55,128 nt of DNA from Deltaproteobacteria bacterium (GTDB lineage Bacteria > Desulfobacterota > GWC2-55-46 > DRQE01), in the NCBI GenBank assembly GCA_016219105.1, contig JACRCI010000115.1, positions 1-55,128 on the forward strand, written 5' to 3'. The notes below the pieces were generated by a model. The model made no database searches, was not told the origin of the DNA, and was given only the letters and a program-made list of their open reading frames with translations. Every line of letters starts with the position of its first letter. Within the stretch, counting starts at the first letter, position 1. Both the position numbers and the translations under genes were made by a program. Shown here piece by piece: positions 3,052 to 48,065 of this stretch.

Positions 3052-5262
3052 TCAGGGCCGGGCGGCGCCGAGGAGTTTAATCAACTCGTTGGCCGGCACT
3101 CCGGCCTCGATGGTAACCGGCTCTTTGCAGGCGCCTTCGGCGCAAACATAGACCGCAGTCTTATTGTCAATGGATTTAAAGGCCTCGATGCCGCGCACGA
3201 TGCGCTTCAGAGAAGACAGACGAGGCCGGCTATCAGGTATATCTTTATCCTCGGGCTTCAAGACAACGGTCGTGTGCGGGATGAACTCCGCACGCAGCGC
3301 CGCGAGCACGCGGCGGGTGGAGTCCTTCGTCGAGTCCCCGGCGACCACCACGTGATAGGACGGGCCGAGCCGGAAATCAACGGCGCTCAGAAACCGGGTA
3401 TGCCCCGCGGGGTACCGGCATAGATTGCCGGAAAATATGCGCACCGCGGCTTCGGCCATCTGCGCGGGCACGCTGTCTCCGGTAATGGCCGAAAGGCGCA
3501 GACAGTTCATAACGGCGACCGAATTTCCCGAAGGGAGCGCGCCGTCCATGCTCTCCTTCTGACGGAACGGCAGCGCGCTTAAGCCTTCGGATTCGGCGGT
3601 AAAGAAAAACCCGCCTGGTCCGGCGTCCCAGAAGCGTTTTGTCATAACCCCGTTCAGCTCAAGCGCCCTCTCCAGATAGACCTCTTCAAACGTCGCCTCA
3701 TAGAGCTCGATGAGGCCGTGGATAAAAAAGGCGTAGTCGTTGAGGTTCCCTTCCACCGCGGCCTCGCCGGTCTGCCAACCGGCCTCGCCGGCCCGCCAGC
3801 AATGGAGGAGTCTGTTTTCAACAAGGAGATTTCTGAGGATAAAATCCGCCGCGCTTGAAGCCGCATCGAGGAAAAGCCCTTCCTCAAAGACAGCCCCCGC
3901 CTTTGCCAGCGAGGCTATCGTAAGCCCGTTCCAGTCGGTGAGTATCTTGTCGTCCCTGAACGGCCTTGCCCTCCCCTGCCTGTACGAAAAAAGTTTCCGC
4001 CTGATTGCCTCCAGCCTCCGTTCAAACTCTTCCGTGGACACGCCTGACTCCATCGCGAGCGAGGCCGGGGGTTTGGCGAGATAGAGGATGTTGTTGCCGC
4101 GCCTCGCCCCGCCTTCGGCCTCGCCGGCCAACCAGCCGACCTCGACGGAGAGGTTGCCCTCTCTGCGCACGTTGAACGCCTTTATTGCAAAATCGGCCAG
4201 GCCTCCGGCGGCCTCGATAATTTCTTTTTCGCCCCAGAGGTAAAAGCTGCCTTCCACGCCTTCGCTGTCGGCGTCCTCGGCCGAATAAAAACCTCCGCCG
4301 GGAGAGGTCATGTCCCTCAGCACGTACGACAGTATCTCGCGGGCGGTCCTGGCATAAAACTCCTTTCGGGTGGCCTGATACGCCTCGATATACGCATCCG
4401 CGAGGAGCGCCTGATCGTAGAGCATCTTTTCGAAATGCGGCACGCGCCACGCCCTGTCCGTGGAATAACGGTGGAAACCGAACCCCACGTGGTCGTATAT
4501 GCCGCCGAGGCGCATGGAGGTAAGGGTCGTCTCCGCCATCTTTAGCGCCGCGGAGTTCCCTGTGCGCATCCAGTAGCGCAGGAGGAACGTCACGTTGTGC
4601 GGGACAGGGAACTTCGGGGCCTGACCAAACCCGCCGTGGACCGCGTCGAAATTCTCCGTGAGTTCCCCGTACGCGGCGCTTATCGTGATAGCGCCGGGCA
4701 GCATTCCCGGCGAAAGGTCACCTGCCCCTTTCCTGAGCATGGAGGATACCTTATCGGCGGATTTAATGACGTCGCCCCTGCGCCGAATCCACAAATCCTT
4801 CATTCCGCGCAGGAGTTCGATGATGCCCGGCCTGCCGTAGAGGCTCTCCTTCGGGATGTAGGTCGCGGCGAAAAACGGCTTTTTATCCGGGGTCATAAGG
4901 ATGTTGAGCGGCCAGCCGGCGGTGCCTGTCAGCAGCTCGGAGGCCGCGACACAGATAGAGTCCACGTCCGGCCTTTCCTCCCTGTCCACCTTCACGGGGA
5001 TGAACGCCTCATTCAAGATGCCGGCGACCTCATGGTCGTTATAGGACTCCTCCTCCATCACATGGCACCAGTGGCAGGCCGAATACCCAGAGGAAATGAA
5101 TACGGGCTTGTCCTCCATCCTGGCCCTGTCGAAGGCCTCGTCGCTCCACGGGTGCCAGTCAACCGGGTTGCGGGCGTGCCGCAGGAGATAGGGGCTTTTT
5201 TCCATGATGAGCCTGTTTGTTTTTCCCCTGGTGCCGCTTCCATTCATTGCCGTTGCCTCCAT
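3052..5262 (-). CDS. thioredoxin-domain (DUF255) protein, YyaL-like
   Basis: 736-aa ORF. N-terminal [19 protein letters not shown] and SACHWCHVM motifs, followed by a long alpha-toroid-like region. Confidence 0.85.
3761..3800 (-). repeat. degenerate tandem pair related to the dispersed GGCTGGTTGG repeat (in the yyaL-like gene)
   Basis: GCCTCGCCGGTCTGCCAACCG / GCCTCGCCGGCCCGCCAGCA, encoding [12 protein letters not shown]. Confidence 0.5.
4126..4148 (-). repeat. dispersed 23-bp repeat copy (in the yyaL-like gene, sense orientation)
   Basis: Minus strand reads CCGTCGAGGTCGGCTGGTTGGCC, translated as VEVGWLA. Confidence 0.8.
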
Positions 5263-5376
5263 GCTCCTCCATATATTAATAGCGTAAGTTTTACGAAGGA
5301 CAAGGGAAAGGATATCGCGGGGGGAGAAAAAAAGGTTAACGGTTAAACCATTCTTTGACAGGGGCGAGCATTCCGT

Positions 5377-5631
5377 TCATCTATACTTTATTTTAAACGC
5401 GAGGATTATGGATATAAGGAGGAACGTGACCATGTTCGCGAGGATAATCGGCAGGGAATGCATCAATAACCCGTAGGCTATCCAGAAAAGGATGCCCGTC
5501 ATGAGCAGTATGAACATGCCGTATGAAAAATCCCCGGTAGACCGCGTCTTCCACGTCTTCACCACCTGGGGGAAAAAGGATACGGTCGTAAGCGTGCCGC
5601 CGATCAGGCCTATCATGGTTGTCGGGTCCAT
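5377..5631 (-). CDS. SemiSWEET / PQ-loop small membrane transporter
   Basis: 84 aa with three predicted TM helices and a PQ motif (FFPQVVKTWKTRST). Confidence 0.75.
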   Translation of the reverse strand: MDPTTMIGLIGGTLTTVSFFPQVVKTWKTRSTGDFSYGMFILLMTGILFWIAYGLLMHSLPIILANMVTFLLISIILAFKIKYR

Positions 5632-5634
5632 GCC

Positions 5635-7161
5635 TCACTCGACCGCCCTGTCAAGCGTCCTGTACTGCACGGCCTCGGCGATGTGCTGGGGTTCTATCGC
5701 GTCCTTCTCGTCGAGGTCCGCGATGGTCCGGGCCACCTTGAGTATCCGCGTATAGGCCCGCGCCGAGAGGCCGAGCTTTTCAATGGCGGCCTCAATGAGC
5801 CTCATGGATTCGTCGTCAACGCCGCAGTATTTTTTTACCTGCCTTGAGGTCATCCTCGAATTGGAAAATATATTCGTCCCCTTGAACCTCTCCCTCTGGA
5901 TCTTGCGCGCCTTATCCACCCGCGCCTTGATCTCGGAGGAGACCGCGCCGGACCTCTTTTCGCCGAGGTCGCTGAACCTGACCCTCGGCACCTCGCAGTG
6001 GATGTCTATGCGGTCGAGGAGCGGGCCGGAGAGCTTCCCCCTGTAGCGCCGCACCATGAGCGGCGTGCACAGGCATTCCCTGTCCGCATCCCCCATATAG
6101 CCGCAGGGACAGGGGTTCATGGCGGCCACGAGCATGAAATCCGACGGATCTGTTATGGATACCGCGGCCCTCCCTATGGTGACGAAACCGTCCTCGAGCG
6201 GCTGCCTCAAGACCTCGAGCACGTTCCTCCTGAACTCCGCCACCTCGTCGAGGAATAAGACCCCGTTATGCGCGAGGCTCACCTCCCCGGGCCGGGGGAT
6301 CTGGCCGCCGCCTATAAGCCCCGCGTCCGACACGGTATGGTGCGGCGCCCTGAAGGGCCTTCTTACCACAAGCGCCGGCCGGCCGGCAAGCACGCCGGCA
6401 ACGCTGTGTATCTTGGTCGTCTCAATGGCCTCGTCGAGGCTCAGGTCCGGGAGTATCGAGGGAAGCCTCCTCGCTATCATCGTCTTCCCGCTTCCGGGCG
6501 GGCCTATCATGATGACGTTGTGCATGCCCGCGGCGGCGACCTCGACCGCCCTCTTTACGTGCTCCTGCCCCCTCACCTCGCTTAAGTCCGCCGCTGCCTC
6601 GCCGCTTTCCTTGAAAAATGCCTCGATGTCCGCTGTCGCCGGCTCTATGGCCTTTGAGCCGTTCAGGAACTCCACGAGTTCATGAAGCGTCCTTACCCCG
6701 AAGACCTCCACGCCACAGACGAGCGCGGCCTCCGAGGCGTTTTCAACGGGCAGAAGCATCTTTTTCTTCAGTTCCCTCGCCAGAACGGCAACGGGCAGCG
6801 CCCCGCGCACCGCCTTTATCGCGCCGTCGAGGGAAAGCTCCCCGAGGATGAAAAAATCCGCGAGCGCGGCGTTTTTTACAATCCCGCCGGCCTTCAGTAT
6901 CCCGACCGCCACGGGCAGGTCGAAAACCGTGCCTTCTTTTTTAACGTCCGCCGGCGCCAGATTGACGGTGACCCTGCCCGTTGGGAAGGCGTAGCCTGAA
7001 TTCTTTACCGCGGATTTGACCCTTTCCCTGCTCTCCTTTACCGCGTTGTCAGGAAGGCCCACCGTGGAAAACGACGGAAGCCCCCTTGAGGAATCCACCT
7101 CGACCTCAACGGGGAAGGCGTCTATGCCCAGGATGGATGCGCTTAAGACCTTGGCGAGCAT
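5635..7161 (-). CDS. comM: YifB/ComM family Mg-chelatase-like AAA+ ATPase
   Basis: MLAKVLSASILGIDA N-terminus, Walker A GPPGSGKT and a ChlI-like core. ATG at 7161 follows a GGGGGAA RBS. Confidence 0.9.
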   Translation of the reverse strand: MLAKVLSASILGIDAFPVEVEVDSSRGLPSFSTVGLPDNAVKESRERVKSAVKNSGYAFPTGRVTVNLAPADVKKEGTVFDLPVAVGILKAGGIVKNAALADFFILGELSLDGAIKAVRGALPVAVLARELKKKMLLPVENASEAALVCGVEVFGVRTLHELVEFLNGSKAIEPATADIEAFFKESGEAAADLSEVRGQEHVKRAVEVAAAGMHNVIMIGPPGSGKTMIARRLPSILPDLSLDEAIETTKIHSVAGVLAGRPALVVRRPFRAPHHTVSDAGLIGGGQIPRPGEVSLAHNGVLFLDEVAEFRRNVLEVLRQPLEDGFVTIGRAAVSITDPSDFMLVAAMNPCPCGYMGDADRECLCTPLMVRRYRGKLSGPLLDRIDIHCEVPRVRFSDLGEKRSGAVSSEIKARVDKARKIQRERFKGTNIFSNSRMTSRQVKKYCGVDDESMRLIEAAIEKLGLSARAYTRILKVARTIADLDEKDAIEPQHIAEAVQYRTLDRAVE

Positions 7162-11781: not shown

Positions 11782-14211
11782 CTAAAAAATATCAACGACC
11801 GTCACTCCGTTAGGACCGGCAAGCGTATCTCCGTCTTTAAACCCTTTGACAAGCGGGTTTGCCGCAAGGTGCTCGTGTATCGCCTTCCTGAGCCTTCCGG
11901 TGCCTATGCCGTGTACCAGCTCTATCCTCTCCACGCCCATGGAGTGCGCGTCGTCAATGACCCTTGAGACCCTCCTTATAGCCTCCTCGACCCTCATGCC
12001 GATGAGGTTCACCCTCCCCGCCCCTGAAACCGGCGTGGCCGGCTGGTTGGCCGTCGAGGACGGCTGGTGGGCCGGCGTGGCCACCACCGTTACTGACCCG
12101 CCAGTCGTCCTCGACGGCCCGCCCGTGGCTCCGGCCTTTTTAAGTTTATCCCACCTGACCCATACCTTGAGGTTCCCGGCGGCCATCTCGGCGTTCCTCC
12201 TCTCCCCGTCCACCCTCAACACGACCCCTCTTATGCGGCTTCCCTCCATCTCCACCGTGTCGCCGGCCGACGGCACGTAGATTTCCTTCCGGGGACTTAG
12301 AACTAACGACACCCGCTCTTTCACCTTTCCGAGATTGCGGATGCCGTCTCCCGCATCCGGCGCCTTTGGAGCGGCCTTCATATGCTCAACCAATCCTCTT
12401 ATCTCTGAAGCGGCCTTTTCCGCTATCGCGTCAAACCTCTTCCTCGCGCTCTCCCGCAGCCCTTTTCCCTCATCCCTCAGCCTTTCAAGGGCCTTTTGCC
12501 TTTTTTCCTCCATCTTTCCGAGCCTCTCGTTAAGGGCCTCGAGCCTTTTCCGCTCCTCATCAAGCCTGCGCATACCCTCCACGTATGGACCTTCCTCGAT
12601 GTCAAGCGTCCTGCGGGCCCTCTCTATGATGTCCGGCGGTATGCCGTATGTAGAGGCTATCGAGAGGGCGAGACTCGGCCCGGGCATACCGTAGCGGAGC
12701 GTGTAAAGCGGCCTCATGGTCTTATCGTCGAACACGACCGACGCGTTCTCGTAAGCCCGGTCTACCTGCGCGTGGGCCTTCAGGAGGTTCAGGTGTGTGG
12801 TTACCACGGCGCGCGCCCCCCGCTCCTTGAGCCCTTCGAGCATCGCCAGCGCGAGAGAACCTCCCTCGGAGGGGTCCGTTCCAACGCCGATTTCGTCTAT
12901 GAGGACGAGCGTATCGGAGTCGCTCTTTTCGAGGATCTCCGCCATCCTTTTAAGGTGGGCCGAAAACGTGCTCAGGCTTTCTCCTATGTTCTGCCTGTCC
13001 CCTATGTCGGCGAATATCGCGCCGAAAACCCGCGCCTCCGAGCCCTCTAAAGCCGGTATCGGAAGGCCGGATTGGGCCATGAGCGACAATAGCCCAAGCG
13101 TCTTAAGGGCGACGGTCTTTCCTCCGGCGTTGGCGCCCGATATGACGAGTACTTTTTTATCCTCTCCCATGAGGATGTCCACCGAAACGACCCTGGCTAC
13201 GCCGTTTGCCTCCTTGAAAGCTAATATCGGATGCCTCGCCCCCCTGATATTTATACCGCCCCCCATGATGCTCACGCCCCCGGCGGCCATAAGCGCCGGT
13301 ATGACGCCTTTTATGTGCCTCTTGAAAATGGCCTTCGCCTGGAGAAAATCAAGTTCCGCCGCTATCTCACCGTCGTTTAAAAGGACATCCCTCAGACCGA
13401 GGAGTATCGAGCAAACGCCTTTAAGTATCTCTATCTCCTCTTCCTTTTCATCCCTTTTGAGTATGGCTATGCGATTATTGATATCAACCGTCTCGAACGG
13501 CTCTATGAAATACGTCGAGCCGCTCCCGGACCTGCCGTGGACTATCCCCGGAAAATGAGAGTGAGGCCCGGCCTTTACGCAAAGAACCATGCGGTCGTCC
13601 CTCAGGGTGAAGACCTCATCCTGGAGCTCGTCGCCCAGGGATTTTTTCCTTATAAGTTCCTCTATCGCCTTCCTGCAGCGCTCCTTAAGCGCCGCGGCCT
13701 CGTTCCTTATGCCCCTGAGCCTCCCGGTGGCGCCGTCCTTTATATACCCGGCCTCATCGAGTATGTCGTCGAGGGCGAGATACAGAGAACGGGGGGTGGA
13801 GAGCGAATCCGCCTTTGCGGTTATAAGCGGAAAATGTCGTCCGGCCAGCCGGGTCAGGAAGGCCTTCAGTTCCAAAAGCCCCTCAACCGTGTGCTTCACC
13901 TCAAGGAGTTCGTCCGGCTGAATGTATCCGCCGGGCTTAAGCCTCTTTAGCGGCCCTTTCAGGTCGCCTATGCCGCCAAGCGGGAGTATCCCGGCACGGC
14001 CGGCTGGATGGCCGCCGGTTTGTCCAATGGAGTGATTGTTAAGCAGGGATACGGCTTCATTCAGAGATAGGCGGGACGCATCAATGGCGGAGATATCCGC
14101 CATCGGTCTTAAAGAGCGCACAAGCTCGCGGCCCGGCGGCGTTTGCGCGAAGCCTTCGAGTTCTTTCAATACAGCCGGGTATTCAAGGGCCTCAAGGGTT
14201 GTTTCATCCAT
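11782..14211 (-). CDS. mutS2: endonuclease MutS2 (MutS ATPase plus C-terminal Smr domain)
   Basis: Walker A GANAGGKT, DEIGVGTDP motif and C-terminal Smr motif LVHGIGTGRLR. Start placed at ATG 14211 (MDETTLEALEYP). Confidence 0.9.
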   Translation of the reverse strand: MDETTLEALEYPAVLKELEGFAQTPPGRELVRSLRPMADISAIDASRLSLNEAVSLLNNHSIGQTGGHPAGRAGILPLGGIGDLKGPLKRLKPGGYIQPDELLEVKHTVEGLLELKAFLTRLAGRHFPLITAKADSLSTPRSLYLALDDILDEAGYIKDGATGRLRGIRNEAAALKERCRKAIEELIRKKSLGDELQDEVFTLRDDRMVLCVKAGPHSHFPGIVHGRSGSGSTYFIEPFETVDINNRIAILKRDEKEEEIEILKGVCSILLGLRDVLLNDGEIAAELDFLQAKAIFKRHIKGVIPALMAAGGVSIMGGGINIRGARHPILAFKEANGVARVVSVDILMGEDKKVLVISGANAGGKTVALKTLGLLSLMAQSGLPIPALEGSEARVFGAIFADIGDRQNIGESLSTFSAHLKRMAEILEKSDSDTLVLIDEIGVGTDPSEGGSLALAMLEGLKERGARAVVTTHLNLLKAHAQVDRAYENASVVFDDKTMRPLYTLRYGMPGPSLALSIASTYGIPPDIIERARRTLDIEEGPYVEGMRRLDEERKRLEALNERLGKMEEKRQKALERLRDEGKGLRESARKRFDAIAEKAASEIRGLVEHMKAAPKAPDAGDGIRNLGKVKERVSLVLSPRKEIYVPSAGDTVEMEGSRIRGVVLRVDGERRNAEMAAGNLKVWVRWDKLKKAGATGGPSRTTGGSVTVVATPAHQPSSTANQPATPVSGAGRVNLIGMRVEEAIRRVSRVIDDAHSMGVERIELVHGIGTGRLRKAIHEHLAANPLVKGFKDGDTLAGPNGVTVVDIF
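12032..12082 (+). repeat. dispersed repeat, two tandem units (in mutS2, antisense orientation)
   Basis: GGCGTGGCC-GGCTGGTTGGCC-GTCGAGGAC-GGCTGGTGGGCC-GGCGTGGCC, translated on the minus strand as ATPAHQPSSTANQPATP. Confidence 0.8.
12095..12117 (-). repeat. dispersed repeat copy, inverted relative to 12051-12073 (in mutS2)
   Basis: Minus strand reads CCGTCGAGGACGACTGGCGGGTC (20/23 identical to the neighbouring plus-strand copy), translated as PSRTTGGS. Confidence 0.7.
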
Positions 14212-19428: not shown

Positions 19429-20073
19429 TCACTCCCCTTTCACTTCTTCAAAACCCTTCCTTATCGCCTCGATGTTGCCCTCTATTACCTTCGCGTCGAA
19501 TTTTTTGGAGTAGTTCTCCCTGAAGTTGTCAATTATGGACTGCAGTTCCACCGTCCCGGCCACCTTTGAAAGGGCGCCGAGCATGGGGGTATTGGGCAGA
19601 TGACGCCCTATCTTTTCAATTGAAATCCTGGAGGCGTCCACCGTATAAACCTTGCCTTCGCCGTCTTTAATGCCCAATTCTTTCCTCATCTCCCCAGGCG
19701 GGCGCGGGGTATTGACGATGAACACCGTATCCTTAGAGGTGCCCTCGACGAGAGGGCTCGGCCCACCAGCCGTCTTCGACGGACCGCCGGAAGAAGTTTT
19801 TCCGCCCCCGCCTTTGCCCCCGCCTTTACCAATGAGCGTCGGGTCCACTATGATGACTATACCCGGGTTCTTCACCTGGCAGTGCATACGCACCGGCTCG
19901 GTGGAGAGCCTGTTAAAAGCCCTCACCGGCGCGCCCATCCTCTCAGGACCGAACTCCGGGAACGCCTGCACGTACTTGCCTTCCCTCAGGGCCGTCTCGC
20001 CGAGAAGTTTGGCCGCGGTAACGACACCCTGCTGCGCCCTTCCATGCCATCTAACCTCGGTATATTTCTCCAT
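19429..20073 (-). CDS. porG: pyruvate:ferredoxin oxidoreductase gamma subunit, with a Gly/Lys-rich insertion
   Basis: RWHGRAQQGVVTAAKLLGE and NTPMLGAL motifs. About 25 extra residues (GKGGGKGGGGKTSSGGPSKTAGGPS) are present relative to canonical gamma subunits. Confidence 0.88.
   Translation of the reverse strand: MEKYTEVRWHGRAQQGVVTAAKLLGETALREGKYVQAFPEFGPERMGAPVRAFNRLSTEPVRMHCQVKNPGIVIIVDPTLIGKGGGKGGGGKTSSGGPSKTAGGPSPLVEGTSKDTVFIVNTPRPPGEMRKELGIKDGEGKVYTVDASRISIEKIGRHLPNTPMLGALSKVAGTVELQSIIDNFRENYSKKFDAKVIEGNIEAIRKGFEEVKGE
19760..19782 (-). repeat. dispersed repeat copy (in the porG insertion)
   Basis: Minus strand reads CCGTCGAAGACGGCTGGTGGGCC, translated as PSKTAGGP. Confidence 0.75.
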
Positions 20074-22807: not shown

Positions 22808-22857
22808 AATCAAGGGGCCGGATTGTCGGCCGGTGAAGCCGGAGGACGGCTAACTGA

Positions 22858-22992: not shown

Positions 22993-23020
22993 CAATCCCT
23001 GCATGCCTTACAGTAAAATC

Positions 23021-23112: not shown

Positions 23113-23123
23113 GTGAAAAAACC

Positions 23124-23196: not shown

Positions 23197-23202
23197 TGTA
23201 TC

Positions 23203-23298
<96 letters not shown>

Positions 23299-35773: not shown

Positions 35774-36061
35774 CTACCCCTCTATCACGCCGAGTATGTC
35801 CTCTTCCCTCATTATGAGGTGCTCCTCTCCCTCTATCTTGACCTCAGAGCCGGCGTATTTGGAGAATAGGACCTTATCGCCCTTTTTGATGTCTACCGGG
35901 ACTAATACGCCTTTGTCGTCGCGCTTGCCGGGGCCCACGGCAATGACCTTGCCCTCGGCCGACGCCTCCTTGGCCGAGTCCGGGATGATAATCCCGCCCT
36001 TGGTCTTTTCCTCCTCGAGTCTCTTTACGATTACACGGTCATGCAACGGTCTGATCTTCAT
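35774..36061 (-). CDS. groS: co-chaperonin GroES
   Basis: [32 protein letters not shown]. Confidence 0.96.
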
Positions 36062-36201
36062 GCGAATTACCCTCCTTGGAATTTTAAATACTATTGCCTT
36101 ATGATTTTCAGAAACGACTCCCCCTGTGCGACGACGCCGGATGCCTTATTTGAGAGGTACGGCGAAATTTCCGGGAGGTATTCCAGTAAATCGTATACAT
36201 G

Positions 36202-36230
36202 AATATATGTACCTTGTCTGGTTTTGTCAA
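36202..36230 (-). promoter_or_regulatory. candidate sigma-70 promoter of groES-groEL
   Basis: Minus strand reads TTGACA-N17-TATATT, about 140 nt upstream of the groES ATG and immediately downstream of CIRCE. Confidence 0.45.
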
Positions 36231-36238
36231 GGGGTTTT

Positions 36239-36265
36239 TTAGCACTCTATGCCGGAGAGTGCTAA
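36239..36265. promoter_or_regulatory. CIRCE operator (HrcA binding site)
   Basis: Perfect TTAGCACTC-N9-GAGTGCTAA inverted repeat upstream of groES. Confidence 0.92.
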
Positions 36266-36273
36266 AAGCTTGC

Positions 36274-36300
36274 TTGCAAAACGGCATATTCTGGTATAAA
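36274..36300 (+). promoter_or_regulatory. candidate extended -10 promoter for the divergent hypothetical gene
   Basis: TTGCAA-N15-TATAAA with a TG extension (TGGTATAAA), about 55 nt upstream of ATG 36354. Confidence 0.4.
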
Positions 36301-36353
36301 ATATAACTAATACAACTGCAGTTAACGAAAATGCGGGGAAAAAGGGCAAAAAA

Positions 36354-36932
36354 ATGTTTACCGAAACGTCCCCTCTTGAATATTTCAGCGCACTCGTTTC
36401 AAAGGCCATGAAAGACCAGGGCATCGCGGCAAGCGATACGGCCGGGTTCTATATCTCAAGCCTGCTCGCGAGTTACGTCGCGAGCAGAAAACTTTCGGAC
36501 GAGGCGTTTGCCGCAAGGTTCTTGAAAGCGCTCGGGGCCGAGAGAGAGGTAAAAAATGTCCTCTTGAAGGAAATAGGAGACTCCTCGCTCTTTATGACCG
36601 GCTTTTTCCACGAGAGCTTCAAACGCAAGGTCGTGGACATAGACTACTACGTGGGCATGGGGATCATGTCATACGCAAGCCTTGCCGATTCCCTTCATGA
36701 AAAAAGCCGCCGCGCCACTGCCCTTGCCTCCATATACATGGAGCTTTCGGATAAGTTCGTAGAGTTCATGGACGTATTGAACGAGATAAGCGAGAGGAGC
36801 GGGATAAAGACCGCCCTCGACACGTTAAGGCTCTACGAAAGGTGGCTGAAGACCGGCAGCCCCCGCACAAAGGCCATACTGAAGGAACTCGGCATAGACC
36901 CGGTGAGGGTGCCGGTAAAACCGATGCAGTGA
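36354..36932 (+). CDS. hypothetical protein, 192 aa, predicted all-alpha
   Basis: Long ORF divergent from groES with a purine-rich stretch (GGGGAAAAAGGG) upstream. No family was recognised from the sequence. Confidence 0.5.
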   Translation: MFTETSPLEYFSALVSKAMKDQGIAASDTAGFYISSLLASYVASRKLSDEAFAARFLKALGAEREVKNVLLKEIGDSSLFMTGFFHESFKRKVVDIDYYVGMGIMSYASLADSLHEKSRRATALASIYMELSDKFVEFMDVLNEISERSGIKTALDTLRLYERWLKTGSPRTKAILKELGIDPVRVPVKPMQ

Positions 36933-37004
36933 CCTCCCCCCGCGCCGCAAAAACCTTGTCGGCAGACATGGCGCTGTGGTATGGTAACTTATGGAGGTGA
37001 TGAT

Positions 37005-37214
37005 ATGAGAATTGTTATTATTACCCCGGCCGAAGAAGGCGGTTTCGTCGCCGAGTGTCCTTCATTGCCGGGCTGTATGTCTGAGGGCGAAACACGCGAG
37101 GCGACGATCGAGAACATCAAGGAAGCAATGAGGGGATATATCGCCGCGCTCGAACAGGACGGGTTGCCAGTCCCCGGCGAAGTAGAATCCGAGGTGCTCG
37201 AACTCGCCGTATGA
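37005..37214 (+). CDS. hicB: HicB-family antitoxin (UPF0150)
   Basis: MRIVIITPAEEGGFVAECPSLPGCMSEGETREATIENIKEA is typical of small HicB proteins. GGAGGTG RBS lies upstream of ATG 37005, and the stop overlaps the hicA start (ATGA). Confidence 0.75.
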   Translation: MRIVIITPAEEGGFVAECPSLPGCMSEGETREATIENIKEAMRGYIAALEQDGLPVPGEVESEVLELAV

Positions 37215-37432
37215 CCAGGCTCCCCGGCGTCTCCGGCAAACAGTGCATCAGGGCGCTTGAACGCGCTGGTTTCAAGCTCGTGCGTACCGAAGGCTCACAT
37301 CACTACATGCGCCGGGTCCTTCCGTTTTGCCAGGTCTCCGTCCCGCTCCACCGCTCGCTCAAAAAAGGCCTGCTCCATGGGATACTCAGGTCTGCGGGCC
37401 TCTCCGTGGAAGACTTCCTCAAGCTCCTGTAA
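37211..37432 (+). CDS. hicA: HicA-family mRNA interferase toxin
   Basis: G..CIRALERAGFKLVRTEGSHH motif and a C-terminal L.GILRSAGLSVEDF motif of the YcfA/HicA family. Confidence 0.8.
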   Translation: MTRLPGVSGKQCIRALERAGFKLVRTEGSHHYMRRVLPFCQVSVPLHRSLKKGLLHGILRSAGLSVEDFLKLL

Positions 37433-37652
37433 GCCCTCCTGTTCTCAACCCTATGGATAAGTCGAATAGGGAGTGCGGCAGGCGCGGGCAACACGCATAA
37501 AACCCCTTTTAGCATTGAAATTACGCGCGCCTAAAGAGCGCTCAACGGTGAAGTCGTCCTGAAGATGGGTATCTTATATCTGGAAGAGAGGTTTTGAGGG
37601 TGATAGAGGAAAGGACGAGGCGGGGATGAGCTTCATTAATTTTATCTTTTAC

Positions 37653-38837
37653 TTACGATATTACGGCTTGATGGTGAATCGTTCCCCAAAGAAAGACAAA
37701 AGCAAAAAACAGAAGTATTACCGATGCGCCTACAAATGAAAAGGCAAGGCCAAAATAGGCGGCGATAAATCCCGAGATTAAAGGCCCCGTTGTATGGCCC
37801 ATATCCATTATTGAGCCGAGTGTCCCCATGGCTACTCCATGCGTCTCTTTTTTGCTGAGATCCGCAATCAATGCGGCGGTCGCTGAAGTCACGATGGAAA
37901 GGGATAGACCGAATGATACACTTAATACAAGCAGAGGTACAAAGGAAGTAAAGAACGAGAAAGCCCCGATGCAGACAGCGCCAATTATCGCACCAGCAAA
38001 TATCTGAGGTCTCCTTCCATGTTTATCAGAGAACCTCCCCATCACGGGCTTGGCAAGGGCAAGGGTTATGACTTGTGCGGAAAGGAATATGCCGACAATA
38101 TAGGCGCTAAGGCCTATCTTCAATGAATATAGAGGCAGGAAGGTCTCAAACGTTCCGTATGCAAACAGTATCGCCGCTTCAACTACGCTGGTAAAGAGTA
38201 TCTCCTTATTGGAGATTACCGTCTTGAAGGCCCTTAGAGTTTCCTTCCAGTTCTGATAATTCTTTGCGCCGCCGTTGGGGTCCGGTATCTTCAGCGCCAG
38301 CAATAGCACCAGTATGCCTGCCCCGCCGCATACAAGATATACAACCTTATACCCGATCTCAGGATTCAGCGCCATTGCGCCGATTATCGCCCCTCCGATC
38401 ACCGGCGCCATGAATCTTCCGAACAGCGTGGCCGTTGAAAACCAGCCCATCCTTTCTCCGCGCTCGCCGTGAAAAAGGCCGGCGATCAAGGCCATTGCCA
38501 CCGGCACGAATATGGCTGTTGCGAGGCCATGATAAAACCTGATTATAGCGAGCTGCCATATCTTTGTGACTAACAGATAGAGAAAAGGCGCCGAGGCAAA
38601 TATAATGGCGGATATGACAAGCAATCTTTTTCTACCCCATCTGTCTGCGAGTATGCCAGCCGGGATGCTCGCCACAATCCCCGTAAAGGCGGATACGGCG
38701 GCGACCATCCCGACCATTGACGGGTCTCCGCCGAGGTAAGATGTAAAAAGAGGGAGCGCAGGGCTTTTTGATATGGTGGAGCTGAATATGGCGAAGAGGC
38801 CTGTGGCGCAGAGCAGTATAAAAGGACTTGGCTTCAT
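37653..38837 (-). CDS. MFS transporter
   Basis: 394 aa with about 12 TM helices and the MFS signature GILADRWGRKR between TM2 and TM3. Confidence 0.85.
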   Translation of the reverse strand: MKPSPFILLCATGLFAIFSSTISKSPALPLFTSYLGGDPSMVGMVAAVSAFTGIVASIPAGILADRWGRKRLLVISAIIFASAPFLYLLVTKIWQLAIIRFYHGLATAIFVPVAMALIAGLFHGERGERMGWFSTATLFGRFMAPVIGGAIIGAMALNPEIGYKVVYLVCGGAGILVLLLALKIPDPNGGAKNYQNWKETLRAFKTVISNKEILFTSVVEAAILFAYGTFETFLPLYSLKIGLSAYIVGIFLSAQVITLALAKPVMGRFSDKHGRRPQIFAGAIIGAVCIGAFSFFTSFVPLLVLSVSFGLSLSIVTSATAALIADLSKKETHGVAMGTLGSIMDMGHTTGPLISGFIAAYFGLAFSFVGASVILLFFAFVFLWGTIHHQAVIS

Positions 38838-39385
38838 CCTCTGTTTATCAGTCCCTGTATCTCCTTATGATAAGAGAGATACCGGCCGAGGGTCTTTTCG
38901 TTCTTGCCGTATCGGAGATGGTTTTTCAGTATCTCGACAAAACCCGTTTCCGCATCCGATTCAGACCCGATCGCAACAATCCCGTCCATTACGATATCCA
39001 CAAGCCTGTCGGCATATATGATAATCTTTTCCTCAAGGGTCTTAAGAGAGTAATCCTTTACGGGCAACCCGAGTTCGAAAGCCTCGTCTTTCGTTAATCC
39101 GCCCCTGATGTGTTTCTCCATGATATCCGTTATTGCCTGTGGAAGGCCGAGTTTCTTCCCCATATCCGCCCCGATCATGCCGTGCTCGATATCATGCGTC
39201 ACCGCCTTGCCGAGGTCATGGAACAGGGCGCCCCTACCGATTGTCTCCATATCAAGACCGGCGTCTGTCCTTAAAGCAATCTCAAGCGCCTTTTCCGCCA
39301 CCTTCAAACAATGTTTTATGTCGTCTTCCGGCACCCCCGCCTTTCTGAGCAGATGCACGTCCGAGTCTTGAATCATGTAATCCAT
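38834..39385 (-). CDS. HD/HDIG domain phosphohydrolase (TIGR00295-like)
   Basis: ALFHDLGK (H..HD) motif and a YADRL motif. The stop overlaps the MFS start by 4 bp. Confidence 0.78.
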   Translation of the reverse strand: MDYMIQDSDVHLLRKAGVPEDDIKHCLKVAEKALEIALRTDAGLDMETIGRGALFHDLGKAVTHDIEHGMIGADMGKKLGLPQAITDIMEKHIRGGLTKDEAFELGLPVKDYSLKTLEEKIIIYADRLVDIVMDGIVAIGSESDAETGFVEILKNHLRYGKNEKTLGRYLSYHKEIQGLINRG

Positions 39386-39387
39386 GG

Positions 39388-39672
39388 CTATTTTACCCCG
39401 AAATACGAGAGCGCGTCGGTAACGGCCTTCTCTATGTCTTGCTGTATGTGATTGAACTTTGTCTTCACGTCATCATGGATGTGCCGGATATATTCTTCCC
39501 GAGCCTCCTTGCCATACTTTTCTTCCATCATCTTTCCATATTCATGAATCATGGTGATATCGTGCCTCTCCGCCTTTTTCGCAGGGTCGGCATCAAGCCA
39601 TTCATGCACCTCACGATAGTCCTTCCCTGTACTTTCCATGCTTATCTTCAAGTGGTCATTGATAGGCGGCAT
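39388..39672 (-). CDS. small hypothetical protein (94 aa, His/Glu/Lys-rich)
   Basis: ORF sits 2 bp upstream of the HD gene in the same orientation. No family was recognised. Confidence 0.5.
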   Translation of the reverse strand: MPPINDHLKISMESTGKDYREVHEWLDADPAKKAERHDITMIHEYGKMMEEKYGKEAREEYIRHIHDDVKTKFNHIQQDIEKAVTDALSYFGVK

Positions 39673-39849
39673 ATCGTATCCTCCTTATAATCCTCTCCTA
39701 AATTACCGGACATCCGTGCCTATGCAAATCTTTTAGCATACTGCAGACTGTAAATCAATCTTCGCTCCCCGGCAATCCATCCTCAAGTACGTCCGGGTTG
39801 CGCCAATATTCCTTCAACCCTCCTTCTATCAATCTTTCCTGAAATAGGT

Positions 39850-39855
39850 TATAAT
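39850..39855 (+). promoter_or_regulatory. candidate -10 box for uvrA
   Basis: Perfect TATAAT 47 nt upstream of ATG 39902 in an otherwise GC-rich genome. No good -35 element is present. Confidence 0.3.
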
Positions 39856-39901
39856 CCCAAATTACTTCCCATTTGAAAATGCAACCCCCAGAGGCATACC
39901 A

Positions 39902-42736
39902 ATGGCAAGAAGGCCGCATAAAGCCGTTGCATTCGATCCGTTACCGTCAGGGCCGGCAAACACGGCCGATAAAGGCGAACTCTCAATCGAGGGGCTCAGG
40001 CAGAATAACCTTAAGAACATAAGCCTGAGGATACCCCACGACCGGATTACCGCGATCGTGGGTCTGAGCGGAAGCGGCAAATCCTCGCTCGCCTTCGACA
40101 CCCTGTTCGCCGAAGGCCGCTGGAGGTTCATAGAATCCCTCTCGACCTACACGCGCCTTTTCCTCGAACGGATGGACAGACCGGACCTCGACAGGATAAC
40201 CAACATCCGGCCCGCGATAGCGATCGAGCAGAAAAACCCGGTCAGGGGAAGCCGCTCGACCGTCGGGACCGCGACCGAACTCAACGACTACCTGAGGGTC
40301 CTTTTCGCCAGGACGGGCTCCATCCACTGCCCGCAGTGCGGCAAGGCCGTTACCCCGTCGGACCCGGCCCTTGCGGCCGAAAAGCTCATAGCGCAATACC
40401 ACGGCGCCCCGGCCATCGTGGGCTTTATTGTCCCGGTCGAAAAGACCGGCGGCCAGGCCGGAGACGCCAAGGGGCTTATCGAGGGCCTGCTTAAAAAGGG
40501 GTTTGTAAGGATACGGCTCGAAAACGGCGTCTTTGACATAAGCAACGCGCCGTGGCCGCCGGCCGGGGCAAAGGCCCCGAATGAAATAGCGGTTATCGCC
40601 GACAGGCTCATCCTCAGGCCGGGAGAGAAGGCAAGGCTCGCGGAGGCGATCGAGGTATCCTTCAGGGAGGGCGCTGGGGACGCGTGGGTAGAGGTCTCGG
40701 GCCATGAGACCCGCCGTCTTACGAATCTTTTAAGGTGCGCCGGGTGCGCGATGGACCTCGAAAAACCCTCGCCCCTGCTTTTCTCGTTCAACCATCCGGT
40801 CGGCGCGTGCCCGGAATGCAAGGGCTTCGGCAACATACTCAAATACGACGAGTACAAAATAGTCCCGAGAAAAAACCTGACCCTGAGGGACGGCGCGATA
40901 GAGCCGTGGACAAAACCGGCGTATACGTGGTGGCAGGACGAGCTTGAAAAACGTGCCCCGCGCCACTCCATCAACCTCGACAGGAAATACTCCGAACTCA
41001 CGGCAAGGGAGAAAAAACTCGTGTTCGAGGGCGCGGACGGTTTCGAGGGCGTGCGGGGGTTTTTCGACTATCTCGAAACCAAGAAATACAAACTCCACGT
41101 AAGGGTCTTCCTGTCGAGGTACAAAGGGCATCTCGTCTGCCCGTCCTGCAACGGCGCGCGGCTCAAGAAAAAGGCCCTCGCGATAAAGATGGGGGGCATG
41201 AACATAGCGGAGTTGAGCGCCCTCACCATACTCAGGGCGCGCGAGTTCTTCTCCGGCCTCGAACTCCCGCCGTCGAAAAGGGAGATAGCGAAAGAGGCGC
41301 TGAGACAGATAAACTCGAAACTCGAATTCCTCGACCGCACCGGGCTGGGCTACCTGACGCTCGACAGGCTTTCGCGCACCCTCTCGGGCGGGGAGGCCCA
41401 GAGGGTGGCGCTGGCGAACCAGCTCGCCTCCATGCTCTCCGGCGTGCTCTACATACTCGACGAGCCCTCGGTGGGCCTTCACCCACGGGACATCGCCATG
41501 CTCGTGGGCGAGATAAAAACACTCGCCTCGAGGGGCAATACCGTAGTCGTCGTGGAGCACGACCCCTCGGCGATAAAATCCGCGGACTACATAGTCGAGC
41601 TCGGTCCGGGTTCCGGCGAGATGGGCGGAAGGGTCGTCTTCTCCGGCACGGCGAAGGATTTTATGGAGTCCTCCGCGTCCCTCACGGCGCTCTACCTGAC
41701 CGGCCGCAAACTCATAAACGTGCCGTGCTGGAGGAGGAAGGGGAGCGGAAGGTTCCTCGTCTTGAAAGGCGCCAGCGGGAATAACCTGAAGGGCGTGGAC
41801 GTTAAAATCCCGCTCCAAACGCTCACCTGCGTCACCGGGGTTTCCGGCTCTGGCAAAAGCACCCTCGTCACCGACACCCTGTACAACGCCCTCGCGCCCC
41901 GCTTCGGCATAAAGGCCGAAAGGCCCCTTCCCCACGCCTCTATAGAGGGCGCGGAGCACCTAACGGACCTAAGGCTCATAGACCAGGGGCCCATAGGCAA
42001 GACCCCGAGAAGCAACCCGGTGACCTACATCGGGGGGTTCGACGATATACGCCATTTCTTCTCGACGCTGCGCTCGGCCGCGGGCCTCAGGCCCGGCATG
42101 TTCTCCTTCAACGTCCCGGGCGGGAGGTGCGAGGCGTGCAGGGGAGAGGGCGTACAGAAACTTGAGATGTATTTCCTGCCGGACGTCTACATAACGTGCC
42201 CGGGCTGCAACGGCAAAAGGTACAGGCCCGAGGTGCTGGAGGTGCGGTATGACGGCAGGAACATCCACGACTCCCTGAACATGACCTTTTGCGAGGCCTC
42301 CCGGTTCTTTCAGGGGATGGCGAACCTCTCGAAGAAGATATCGCTCCTCAGGGAAGTGGGGCTTGGGTACTTGAGGCTCGGACAGTCCGCGACCACGCTT
42401 TCAGGCGGCGAGGCCCAGAGGCTCAAGATAGCGCGTGAACTCGCGAAGGGCGACGCAACGGGCATCCTCTACATACTCGACGAGCCGACTACCGGGCTTC
42501 ACCCCGACGACATAAAAAAACTCCTCTCCGTGCTCGGAAGGCTCGTGGACGCGGGCAACACCGTGATTATGATCGAACACAACCTCGACTGCATGAAGAC
42601 GGCCGACCATATCATTGACCTCGGCCCCGAAGGCGGCCCCGAAGGCGGAAGGATAATAGCCGAGGGCGCGCCTGAGAGGATAGCGAGGGTAAGGGAAAGC
42701 CATACGGGAAGATATCTGGGCGAGGCGCTGCGGTAA
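39902..42736 (+). CDS. uvrA: excinuclease ABC subunit A
   Basis: Two ABC modules (GLSGSGKSSLAFDT, GVSGSGKSTL, LSGGEAQR twice) and zinc modules (CPQC, CAGC..CPEC, CPSC, CEAC..CPGC). It is full length, with about 24 extra N-terminal residues. Confidence 0.93.
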   Translation: MARRPHKAVAFDPLPSGPANTADKGELSIEGLRQNNLKNISLRIPHDRITAIVGLSGSGKSSLAFDTLFAEGRWRFIESLSTYTRLFLERMDRPDLDRITNIRPAIAIEQKNPVRGSRSTVGTATELNDYLRVLFARTGSIHCPQCGKAVTPSDPALAAEKLIAQYHGAPAIVGFIVPVEKTGGQAGDAKGLIEGLLKKGFVRIRLENGVFDISNAPWPPAGAKAPNEIAVIADRLILRPGEKARLAEAIEVSFREGAGDAWVEVSGHETRRLTNLLRCAGCAMDLEKPSPLLFSFNHPVGACPECKGFGNILKYDEYKIVPRKNLTLRDGAIEPWTKPAYTWWQDELEKRAPRHSINLDRKYSELTAREKKLVFEGADGFEGVRGFFDYLETKKYKLHVRVFLSRYKGHLVCPSCNGARLKKKALAIKMGGMNIAELSALTILRAREFFSGLELPPSKREIAKEALRQINSKLEFLDRTGLGYLTLDRLSRTLSGGEAQRVALANQLASMLSGVLYILDEPSVGLHPRDIAMLVGEIKTLASRGNTVVVVEHDPSAIKSADYIVELGPGSGEMGGRVVFSGTAKDFMESSASLTALYLTGRKLINVPCWRRKGSGRFLVLKGASGNNLKGVDVKIPLQTLTCVTGVSGSGKSTLVTDTLYNALAPRFGIKAERPLPHASIEGAEHLTDLRLIDQGPIGKTPRSNPVTYIGGFDDIRHFFSTLRSAAGLRPGMFSFNVPGGRCEACRGEGVQKLEMYFLPDVYITCPGCNGKRYRPEVLEVRYDGRNIHDSLNMTFCEASRFFQGMANLSKKISLLREVGLGYLRLGQSATTLSGGEAQRLKIARELAKGDATGILYILDEPTTGLHPDDIKKLLSVLGRLVDAGNTVIMIEHNLDCMKTADHIIDLGPEGGPEGGRIIAEGAPERIARVRESHTGRYLGEALR

Positions 42737-42746
42737 GACTGGTCTT

Positions 42747-44201: not shown

Positions 44202-44202
44202 G

Positions 44203-46466: not shown

Positions 46467-46490
46467 GGGGTTTTTATAGCGGGAAGGTCT

Positions 46491-48065
46491 TTAATTCAGC
46501 CCTTTTGTATTCTCGGGCTTATCGAGCAGGGCCTCTTTAAGCAGGATAGTCTGTCCGGGCATGAGGAGGCGCTCGGCGGCGCCGAGGTCGTTAAGCTGAC
46601 GCAGCCGGTCGAGCCCTATGCCGAACCGCCTTGATATGAGCCACAACGAGTCGCCTTCCCTCACTGTGTAGGTCTCTTCCGGAGAGGGCGTGTATCTCGC
46701 CTTCACGACCTCATGCGCGTCAACGCCGTCTTTTGCCCTCACCGGCACGACTACCATCCTGCCGGCCCTTACGCCGCGGGTGCTTTTAATGTCGTTGAGG
46801 TACATAATCTGCTTTATGTCGGTCCCGTACAGGCGCGCGATCTGAGAAAGCGTCTCGCCTTTCCTCAGTTTGTGCTGGTGGAATCTGAGCCTCTCCTGCC
46901 TCGGAACCCGACTCATCCTCTCCTCGAATATCTCCTTTTTCCCGGCCGGTATGTTTATCTGGTAGTCGGGGTAGTCCGGCGGCGTGAACCAGCGCAGGAG
47001 TTCCGGGTTGAGCATGGTGATATCCTCGACGGTCGTCCCGGCGGCCCACGCTATGACCTTCAGGTCGGTCGGCCCAGGCACCGTGACCTTCTCGAAGGCA
47101 AGCGGCTCCATGTAGTTTATCTCCGTAAAGCCGTAGCTCTGCGGGTCCTTTGCTATAAGCATGGCCGCCATATATTTCGGTATGTAGTTCTTCGTCTCGC
47201 TCTTAAGCGACTTTTTATGCGACGCGAGCTCCCAAAAGTCTTCCGTATTATATTTTTTGATGGCCCGGCTTACTTTCCCCTCCCCGGCGTTATATCCCGC
47301 GGCGGCGAGGTACCAGGAATCGAACATCCCGTAAAGGTTTTTGAGGTAGTTCGCGGCCGCCAGGGTGGCCTTCTCCGGGTTGCGCCTCTCGTCCACCCAC
47401 CAGTTAACCCTCAGGCCGTACTTTTTGGCCGTCCCGGGTATGAACTGCCAGATGCCGACGGCCTTGGCGCGGGAGCGCGCGTAGGGGTTGTAACCGCTTT
47501 CGATAAGCCCGATATAGGCAAGGTCCTCGGGCAGGCCGGCGGCGGAGAGCGTTTCTTTTATCATCGAGAGGTACATCTCGCTCCTCTCGAGCCACTTAAG
47601 GAAGACCTTCCGTCCGCGCGTCTGGAAATACTCTATGTGGTTTTCAACCGCCGGGTTTATCACAACCGGCACGTCAAACGTAGGAACTTTTCTCTCCTCG
47701 CCCGTCGAGATCATCGAAGCCGCTATGTCACCCTGCCCCGGCTCGGCCGGAGCCATGTCAGCCGGGGCTGCCCCAGGTGTCGCCCGTTGAACCGTCAAGG
47801 ACGGCTGGATGGCCGTCAAGGACGGAGTGCCGGTCGTCGGGGTCATCGGAGACGCCATCTCACCCTGCCCCGGCTCGGCTGGAGCCATATCGGCTGGGAC
47901 TGCCCCAGGTGTCGGAGTGCCGTCCGCCTCCCGGGTTGACGGCGTCTGGAAAAAATAAGAATCCAGGGCCTGAGGGTCTTCCCCTTCGCAGGCGAACGCC
48001 TCGGCCCAGCCCGTGAAGGGCAGAAGGGCGCACAGGATTACGAATATGATGAACGTCCTTTTCAT
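46491..48065 (-). CDS. LysM-domain lytic transglycosylase (MltD-like)
   Basis: Signal peptide, repeat-rich Pro/Ala linker, SLT domain (GLIESGYNP...AVGIWQF...AAGYNAG) and two C-terminal LysM motifs. ATG 48065 lies just after the upstream stop. Confidence 0.85.
   Translation of the reverse strand: MKRTFIIFVILCALLPFTGWAEAFACEGEDPQALDSYFFQTPSTREADGTPTPGAVPADMAPAEPGQGEMASPMTPTTGTPSLTAIQPSLTVQRATPGAAPADMAPAEPGQGDIAASMISTGEERKVPTFDVPVVINPAVENHIEYFQTRGRKVFLKWLERSEMYLSMIKETLSAAGLPEDLAYIGLIESGYNPYARSRAKAVGIWQFIPGTAKKYGLRVNWWVDERRNPEKATLAAANYLKNLYGMFDSWYLAAAGYNAGEGKVSRAIKKYNTEDFWELASHKKSLKSETKNYIPKYMAAMLIAKDPQSYGFTEINYMEPLAFEKVTVPGPTDLKVIAWAAGTTVEDITMLNPELLRWFTPPDYPDYQINIPAGKKEIFEERMSRVPRQERLRFHQHKLRKGETLSQIARLYGTDIKQIMYLNDIKSTRGVRAGRMVVVPVRAKDGVDAHEVVKARYTPSPEETYTVREGDSLWLISRRFGIGLDRLRQLNDLGAAERLLMPGQTILLKEALLDKPENTKGLN
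47792..47842 (+). repeat. dispersed repeat, composite copy (mltD-like linker)
   Basis: CCGTCAAGGACGGCTGGATGGCC-GTCAAGGACGGAGTGCCGGTCGTCGGGG, translated as TPSLTAIQPSLT. It shares the GACGGAGTGCCGGNCGTCG block with the rodZ copy. Confidence 0.75.

Follow-up and report, generated by a model that had tools for sequence, protein, structure and literature searches.

Palindromes lying in frame in essential genes have been seen before, chiefly in Rickettsia and, among repetitive extragenic palindromes (REPs), for a minority of the copies. Elements of the MITE type (miniature inverted-repeat transposable elements) measure 70 to 300 bp and have terminal inverted repeats of 15 to 30 bp and target-site duplications. 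The Rickettsia palindromic elements (RPEs) are some 100 to 150 bp long (RPE-4 and RPE-6 are REP-sized), and many of their copies are intergenic. The elements RPE-1 to RPE-8 were reportedly described by Ogata et al. in 2000 and by Claverie and Ogata in 2003, and the MJRE2 repeats of Methanocaldococcus jannaschii, attributed to Suyama, Lathe and Bork in 2005, are likewise said to be palindromic. The QMITEs of Coxiella are MITE-like repeats (PMC5896051). Intragenic REPs tagged with GTAG or CGTC add 20 to 30 amino acids to open reading frames (ORFs), often in replication or repair genes (Di Nocera et al. 2013, PMC3733652). GTAG REPs have stems of 5 to 13 bp; the CGTC families have stems of 8 to 9 bp and loops of 4 to 5 nt and have no known transposase; REPs are mostly extragenic and their dimers mostly head-to-head (PMC3733652). 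The subject of this report is a dispersed repeat with a 21-nt, hairpin-forming unit, present in frame in seven unrelated genes of one 55,128-nt contig from an NCBI metagenome-assembled genome (MAG) labeled 'Deltaproteobacteria bacterium'; this whole stretch of DNA is termed the window. What is new is a very short (seven-codon) palindromic repeat, exclusively intragenic within the window, in a free-living uncultured deltaproteobacterium. The repeat is probably a lineage-specific mini-palindrome, similar to REPs and RPEs, that entered coding DNA by copying and was retained only where it was in frame and tolerated.

The 23-mer CCGTCGAGGNCGGCTGGTTGGCC had 11 matches in the window at up to 3 mismatches, while dinucleotide shuffles averaged 0.01 and never exceeded 1. 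The original prediction, made from the letters of the window, had proposed that a near-identical motif recurs in at least seven unrelated genes, and these matches fell where it had placed its copies. A position weight matrix (PWM) built from the 23-mer copies detected 17 units at a score of ≥12, as against 0 to 1 per first-order Markov replicate, and 19 units when the threshold was lowered to ≥8. The units added by the PWM were located at 13991–14013, 12095–12117 (inverted), 21625, 21646, 25457 and 3769. The coding copies of the prediction were all recovered, but its list proved to be incomplete, with the sites at 13991–14013 and 3759–3802 having to be added. The units clustered at ~14 sites in 7 of the ~46 genes (~15%) and were spread over 44 kb, with dnaX and mutS2 containing the most. 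Copies in different genes, including those in opposite orientations, were 91 to 96% identical over 24 to 33 nt. When the halves of the motif were searched separately, the hairpin half CCGKCNNNGMCGG had 18 matches (0.9 expected) and the spacer half GGCTGGTKGGCC had 14 (0.6 expected), and the two halves were adjacent in every case. The asymmetric spacer, CTGGTTGG/CTGGTGGG, was common to 12 sites in all 7 genes, always with a hairpin adjoining it.

Pfam searches confirmed the gene identities that had been assigned from the sequence, namely, a YyaL/DUF255 thioredoxin-domain protein, MutS2, PorG (MBI5599614.1), DnaX (MBI5599617.1), a Zn-ribbon/TPR/peptidase_MA protein, RodZ and an SLT+LysM (MltD-like) transglycosylase. 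The window is a core-genome region, ~89 to 90% coding, with nearly every gene on the minus strand, which is also the G-rich strand; its GC content is 57% overall and 52% in the intergenic DNA. The sites were divided between the two strands (~8 plus, 5 to 6 minus). All 19 PWM units were coding and none fell within the intergenic DNA, which accounts for 5.4 kb (9.8%) of the window. A possible noncoding copy had been suggested at 22835–22861, between the gene for the signal recognition particle (SRP) RNA and dnaX; it was dismissed, as its best ungapped PWM score was negative.

Translation of the host genes confirmed that the repeat is read in four frames and in both orientations. None of the six frames of a consensus array contains a stop, and the unit spans seven codons; hence, the host gene is left intact by an insertion. 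The frame encoding NQPSSTA was used at five sites (mutS2, dnaX twice, the rodZ tail and the mltD-like gene), QPAxxxG at three (the N-terminal region of mutS2, dnaX and rodZ), PSxTAGG at three (mutS2, porG and the peptidase gene) and VExGWLA at two (both in yyaL). The two remaining frames, which are Arg rich (PTSRPRR and RRGRLVG), were used at none of the ~14 sites, for which equal use of all frames gives an expectation of (4/6)^14, or ~0.003. Such avoidance is the pattern that would be expected of purifying selection after insertion at the DNA level. Since one DNA word yields four different peptides from both strands, the repeat is not explicable by selection for linker peptides combined with codon bias. 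Convergent linker peptides were ruled out by the four frames, the two orientations and the lack of copies in relatives, and the earlier view that this is a DNA-level repeat of one 21- to 23-mer was thereby upheld. These findings supported the conclusion that what is repeated is DNA rather than peptide, in frame, in the loops and linkers of unrelated genes.

Syntenic loci of five relatives, totaling 87 kb, were compared with the window (L068/L074/L076 from GCA_016219165.1, L071, L072, L073 and L075/L077). The amino acid identity of these loci to the window was 59 to 75%. One marginal PWM match (score, 12.4) was obtained in the 87 kb of relatives versus 17 in the 55-kb window, the closest relative available had no copy in ~29 kb of syntenic sequence, and the orthologous positions carried nothing resembling the unit. 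Across wider collections, the best homologues were 62 to 75% identical, and clustering at 90% left PorG and DnaX each as the sole member of its cluster. The original prediction had pointed to alignment with orthologues as a check, and the inserts were indeed lacking from homologues of PorG (20), YyaL (15), DnaX (four) and MutS2 (two) as well as from the RodZ relatives. Since these are well-aligned sites at which relatives or homologues lack the segment, the alignments establish that the copies in five genes (those for DnaX, MutS2, PorG, YyaL and RodZ) are insertions derived in the host lineage. The prediction that copies occupy loops and linkers also held, with copies located between Pfam domains and the PorG insert in a loop of low model confidence.

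The exact 23-mer had no match in the JGI metagenome collection and none in the IMG/VR viral collection. A pattern for the tandem junction had a single match in the metagenome and viral collections, in a Pro-rich linker (PANQPAPPANQPA) from actinobacterial DNA of 69% GC; this match is due to chance, and it illustrates the resemblance of the NQPA frame to ordinary high-GC linkers. A degenerate pattern, CCGKCRNRGNCGGCTGGTKGGCC, gave at least 67 single chance matches in GTDB genomes, from high-GC genomes, and no second PWM match in the same genome was found among the matches listed. Judged by these searches, the repeat family is lineage specific.

The unit has the form CCGKC-NNN-GMCGG-CTGGTTGG, with a period of 21 nt. 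Together with neighboring bases it comprises an arm (GCCGKC), a 3-nt loop, a second arm (GMCGGC) and the spacer TGGTTG. A small stem-loop had been expected and was present; the GGCC/GGCC pairing proposed for it was not, the actual arms being GCCGKC and GMCGGC on either side of the 3-nt loop. Sites contained one to three units, head-to-tail in a 21-nt register, and some finished with an extra hairpin. Tandem Repeats Finder (TRF) reported a 21-bp period at 3759–3798, 22086–22127, 25455–25500 and 47792–47838, in agreement with the unit length of the original prediction; its further claim that inserts are multiples of 21 bp did not hold, because the net insert sizes relative to orthologues were 21, 24, 39 and 42 nt and larger. 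As each following unit opens with the first arm again, the second arm, spacer and next first arm also form a palindrome within arrays, and the hairpin-spacer-hairpin segment folds as a nested 34-nt structure (sites 47792 and 22086). The predicted fold of the unit was −6.4 kcal/mol (z = −2.3). When 24 units were aligned, 83% of the stem cells were paired; stem pair 6-12 was G-C in nine units, T-A in nine and mismatched in six, and its covariation score was matched by 2 of 500 column shuffles, with slid controls being much lower.

Loop 1 was variable (GAG, GTG, GAA, AGG, AAG and ACG) and the spacer far more constant. The left boundary was sharp, similarity beginning at the first C of CCGKC at ≥10 sites, and the right boundary either followed GGCC(G) immediately or came behind a terminal hairpin. 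Single units were bordered by a 3- to 4-nt direct repeat, CCG(K), which might represent a duplicated target, a microhomology or no more than the beginning of a next unit. Identity decayed along the arrays, and end units were ragged and partial. A variant spacer, AGTGCCGG, was common to the units at 26483 in rodZ and 47813 in the mltD-like gene. The spacers of three copies contained the Escherichia coli Chi octamer, GCTGGTGG (12062–12069, plus 19763–19770 and 25481–25488 on the minus strand), and the majority variant at this position was GCTGGTTG. The octamer is probably a coincidence, because the copies have no strand polarity.

The two yyaL sites are oriented on the minus strand. Site 1 (4116–4148) consists of a full unit, including an exact 23-mer at 4126–4148, and a terminal hairpin, CCGGCGAGGCCG, and forms a clean 8-amino-acid insertion. 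Site 2 (3759–3802) consists of two diverged 21-nt units (CCGGCGAGGCCGG TTGGCAGA followed by CCGGCGAGGCCG), for which TRF gave 1.9 copies of period 21 and the PWM a score of 13.6, and corresponds to a 7-amino-acid (21-nt) insertion; neither insertion was present in any of the 15 YyaL homologues. In mutS2, the linker between the MSSS-SH3 and Smr domains contains two plus-oriented units and a terminal hairpin at 12030–12082, read on the gene strand as PAHQPSSTANQPATP, and a minus-oriented unit at 12095–12117 (PWM score, 21), which reads GPSRTTGG and pairs with 12051–12073. The two plus units thus face one minus unit 25 nt away, with which a stem of ~23 bp is predicted (z = −4.5 on either strand). 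The SH3-Smr linker was 14 to 16 amino acids longer than in relatives. The N-terminal region of mutS2 has one plus-oriented unit of the G-C stem subtype at 13991–14013 (PWM score, 25.7), read as GGHPAGRAG and located in a 13-amino-acid stretch, IGQTGGHPAGRAG, that two relatives lack. In L071 (15944–18234), mutS2 is called as two ORFs of 255 and 508 amino acids, as would result from a frameshift or from faulty assembly of that contig.

The single porG unit (19760–19782, minus) reads PSKTAGGP and lies in a loop of the POR domain. Residues 84 to 103 of PorG were an insertion unique among 21 sequences, and in the AlphaFold2 model these residues had predicted local distance difference test (pLDDT) values of <50 and formed a loop between the confident strands E72-75 and E117-121. 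In dnaX all copies are plus oriented. The C-terminal linker contains one unit at 21490–21512, an exact 23-mer read as TANQPASTA, and three tandem units of decaying identity at 21604–21668, read as PPASTANQRASQANQTTSTA; both sites fall in a 35-amino-acid stretch that the closest relative is without. Two tandem units (42 nt) at 22086–22127, with a TRF period of 21, lie between the ATPase lid and domain III, read as PTSLAGQPAGFAGG and form an exact 14-amino-acid insertion, absent in four relatives, with Pfam domain borders at residues 229 and 248.

In the Zn-ribbon/TPR/peptidase_MA gene, two tandem minus-oriented units at 25457–25500 (96% matches by TRF) read as PSGTAGGPSGTAGGP in a linker beside the membrane segment. 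In rodZ, one plus-oriented unit at 26814–26836 reads GQSAVLDG in the periplasmic linker and falls in a 24-amino-acid insertion relative to L071. A second rodZ site (26483–26537, plus) consists of a variant unit, a full unit and a terminal hairpin, read as PSPAANQPSTTAGTPSP in the part of the C-terminal tail that lies in the −1 frame; this tail extension was absent in relatives L071, L075, L076 and L077. The mltD-like gene contains two plus-oriented units at 47792–47833, the second with spacer AGTGCCGG, which read as TGTPSLTAIQPSLT in an N-terminal low-complexity region upstream of the SLT domain (start residue, 190).

A further match, at 49868–49891 on the minus strand (GGCCTCGCCGGCCAACCCGCCGGC), lies in thiE, a plus-strand gene, and reads LAGLAGQPAG. 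It was identical at 21 of 22 positions to 4117–4138, the flank of a yyaL copy, and at 22 of 24 to a dnaX copy (LAGQPAG). As an insertion this match was ruled out, since it aligns with the ancestral 'LEGG-AT' of the solved ThiE structure 1xi3 with a 1-residue gap. It is either a chance resemblance or a conversion tract over native sequence.

The reading of the rodZ tail depends on a run of T residues. On the minus strand, at 26625–26645, the zero frame of rodZ ends right after G-T9 (GAG GTT TTT TTT TGA), and the conserved DUF4115 end (FLTIGNAGAVELKLNG) continues in the −1 frame, the two ORFs being 26630–27394 and 26460–26726. The copy at 26504, which looks intergenic, is coding because this −1-frame end runs through it. 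The same T9 run, frame offset and immediate zero-frame stop were present in four divergent genomes from independent assemblies (L071, ~3850–3870; L075, ~1360–1375; L076, ~6640–6655; L077, ~1045–1062). Among the closest RodZ homologues, ~19 clusters terminate in VFF(C)(S), without a DUF4115 Pfam match; more distant homologues read through (GF.L.IGNAGGV). The conserved run, offset and stop, together with the truncated homologues, point to a candidate programmed −1 ribosomal frameshift (U_UUU_UUU plus stop) or to transcriptional slippage. No mention of RodZ together with slippage or frameshifting occurred among the best matches of a literature search.

Other repeats were observed near the copies. 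In the mltD-like gene, the motif array is enclosed by an 80-nt direct repeat (47703–47914) of 86% identity, spaced at 132 nt, which codes for a duplicated ATPGA(A/V)PADMAPAEPGQG segment; this looks like an in-frame tandem duplication of 132 nt, either taking in the array or built up around it. In porG, a 12-nt unit is present twice, in frame, at 19804–19827, giving GKGGGKGGGG beside the motif copy, and in rodZ (TTATCC)x8.3 is present in frame at 27102–27151, giving KDKDKDRDKDKEKERDKK. The in-frame repeats in porG and rodZ suggest a general tendency of this genome to expand linkers by slippage.

That the repeat spreads, as the original prediction put it, is something that we infer. Under the explanation favored here, the copies would descend from one another by copying and pasting of DNA, and this copying may depend on the hairpin. 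Selection would then retain copies where 7 to 14 extra flexible residues are tolerated, in interdomain linkers, surface loops and tails, and would purge those in both Arg-rich frames. Most likely, the inserts make linkers longer as neutral or selfish passengers and are not functional modules. As to mechanism, copying without a transposase is tentatively preferred, by a small margin, over transposition of the hairpin. The self-complementary arm might prime template switching, slipped mispairing or ectopic conversion and could anneal in either orientation; local slippage by 21 nt would then build arrays. Points consistent with this mechanism were the decaying 21-nt arrays, the ragged or partial end units, a palindromic arm that could prime in either orientation, the other in-frame tandem repeats in the window (6, 12 and 132 nt) and the lack of copies in the lower-GC intergenic DNA. 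Slippage appears to be active in the host genome. A related and rather unlikely form of this idea is a self-propagating palindrome without a dedicated transposase that prefers coding DNA and adds exactly seven codons per event; here the nascent strand would switch templates between GC-rich codon strings and existing arrays. Ligation of a GG^CC-bounded 21-mer into GGCC sites was ruled out, because no copy has GG on its left.

The copies could instead belong to an element of the REP/REPIN type, in which the unit or an inverted pair is moved as single-stranded DNA by an HUH tyrosine transposase (a REP-associated tyrosine transposase [RAYT], IS200/IS605-like) encoded elsewhere, with coding copies as the tolerated survivors. 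This is a possible reading, though one that we would not back at even odds. The small, GC-rich hairpin, in which one stem pair covaries, the sharp left end at CCGKC and the REPIN-like inverted dimer of mutS2 all fit with it, as does the occurrence of known intragenic REPs in replication and repair genes in particular (PMC3733652), dnaX and mutS2 being the richest hosts here. The location of the units does not, in that REPs are mainly extragenic; nor do the absence of an unpaired GTAG or CGTC head (CGTC lies inside the stem), the stem of 5 to 6 bp and 3-nt loop compared with the 8 to 9 bp and 4 to 5 nt of the CGTC families, and the spacer-less head-to-tail arrays, which are atypical for REPs. 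No transposase was present among the 38 window ORFs, a result that is uninformative for a gene elsewhere in the genome.

Independent local tandem duplications, arising by slippage on GC-rich codon strings without any transfer between loci, would attribute the likeness of the copies to codon bias and to the commonness of Gly/Ala/Pro/Ser/Thr linkers. The 21-nt arrays and the other in-frame tandem repeats of the window are in keeping with this, yyaL site 2 resembles a local duplication of a GEA-coding segment, thiE shows that native sequence can mimic the motif, and the unrelated actinobacterial linker PANQPAPPANQPA fits the tandem pattern. The explanation is nevertheless improbable, since 12 sites in seven genes have the spacer CTGGTTGG/CTGGTGGG in common, always beside the hairpin; codon bias cannot account for four frames and both orientations; identity between genes is high (94 to 96% over 24 to 32 nt); and the orthologous positions in relatives have nothing similar, with 0.01 matches expected in shuffles. 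The variant spacer AGTGCCGG, occurring in two genes (26483 and 47813), is partial evidence in the same direction. A selected functional motif in DNA or RNA, for example a signal for protein binding or recombination or an mRNA hairpin with an effect on translation or mRNA decay, is more improbable still. It would account for the conserved hairpin and for GCTGGTGG in copies 12051, 19760 and 25478 (majority form, GCTGGTTG), but the sites show no strand bias with respect to replication or transcription (~8 plus versus 5 to 6 minus, with genes mostly on the minus strand), a 21-nt insertion far exceeds any known Chi length, the hosts are functionally unrelated and relatives with the same genes lack the motif. 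Least credible of all is an artifact of assembly, binning or sequencing (adapter- or chimera-derived inserts), to which the origin of the sequence from a single MAG and a single sample might lend itself. The Logan assembly of run SRR12113407, made independently, was identical to the window (100% over 1820 bp, including the porG copy), indicating that the inserts are not an artifact of MAG assembly; moreover, the copies are mutually diverged, every copy is in frame and array identity decays along its length.

Several observations weigh against the reading of the repeat as a lineage-specific palindrome copied into coding DNA. All copy counts come from a single 55-kb contig of the host genome, and no strain closer than ~70% protein identity was found in a collection of 15 billion proteins. 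The absence of the ~14 sites from intergenic DNA, which makes up 9.8% of the window, was not significant (p ~0.24). The copies in the peptidase and mltD-like genes lie in nonconserved low-complexity linkers, where alignment was ambiguous or impossible, and the match in thiE, not being inserted, indicates that native Ala-Gly/Gln-Pro coding DNA can resemble the motif. The covariation concerns the single stem pair 6-12 and could fit either a constraint on the hairpin or two lineages of copies. Targeting of preexisting hairpin-like sequence looked suggestive by eye at the YyaL and DnaX sites and was not established by the quantitative test, which was not significant: the hairpin-likeness of orthologous targets in the closest relative was <0.05 at one of six sites. 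Furthermore, none of the 38 window ORFs run through Pfam matched a transposase family, with the limit on this result given above.

Features of the window apart from the repeat were also noted. At 36000–40000 the GC content is 0.50 to 0.51, versus 0.57, and intergenic gaps are long; the ORFs there include one at 36354–36932 (plus) without a Pfam match, an MFS transporter and an HD-domain protein, and no motif copies were present anywhere in 27 to 47 kb. This lower-GC stretch may be acquired DNA. Rfam detected a small bacterial SRP RNA (80 bits) at 22879–22978 on the minus strand, upstream of dnaX-ybaB-recR. Two tRNA-Ser genes (GGA and CGA) were located by Rfam and ARAGORN upstream of dnaX, the SRP RNA/tRNA region being 22879–23298 (minus). 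Heptamer repeats (GTGAATA/TTCACTA) lie between both tRNAs and make up a 29-nt inverted repeat at 23121–23199.

The density of the repeat in the window is ~1 site per 4 kb, or ~1 gene in 6. If this were genome-wide, the repeat would be a major lineage-specific generator of linker and loop length, amounting to a repeat-driven remodeling of the proteome of a kind not described for free-living bacteria, in which selfish or mutational DNA lengthens linkers at scale in proteins of replication, repair, cell shape and central metabolism. On the same condition, the copies would provide a natural experiment on insertion-tolerant protein positions and a clean system for asking whether HUH transposases or replication template switching move short hairpins. 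Annotators would also be warned that such inserts inflate apparent 'low-complexity linkers' in MAGs and can mislead alignments and homology-based domain boundaries.

Among the known types of repeat, two were ruled out. A MITE does not fit a unit of 21 nt whose only flanks are the 3- to 4-nt CCG(K), indistinguishable from the start of a next unit. A CRISPR array does not fit units that abut or occur singly, inside genes, over 44 kb and without unique spacers of 25 to 50 nt. MJRE2 repeats and QMITEs resemble the present repeat in being small palindromic or MITE-like sequences with few coding copies that do not destroy coding regions; they differ in their greater length and in a mainly intergenic location, no more than a handful of the copies being coding. 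Slippage-derived protein repeats likewise consist of in-frame head-to-tail units in linkers, with identity decaying along arrays, but they are private to a locus, whereas here one unit is common to 7 genes and is found on either strand and in four frames.

The likeness to REPs lies in short GC-rich hairpins occurring as singles, dimers and groups. The stem of 5 to 6 bp with a 3-nt loop, in a 21-nt unit, is at the short end of the GTAG range and outside the CGTC range; CGTC is found within the stem (CCGTC/GACGG) and GTAG is absent, in place of an unpaired head; no unit lies in intergenic DNA (0 of 19), where an extragenic location would be typical; and apart from one inverted pair, in mutS2, all multiunit sites are head-to-tail. 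With RPEs the repeat shares palindromic structure, in-frame presence in unrelated housekeeping genes, the use of several frames, tolerated surface or linker positions and restriction to a lineage, and the comparison with RPEs drawn in the original prediction was apt as an analogy. It differs in its 21-nt unit and arrays of 23 to 65 nt, which are short of the length of RPE-1, and in its head-to-tail arrays, its absence from intergenic DNA (0 of 19) and its free-living deltaproteobacterial host (a MAG); in sequence, too, the two are probably unrelated. On this comparison, the behavior of the repeat is closest to that of the RPEs and of the minority of REPs that are intragenic.

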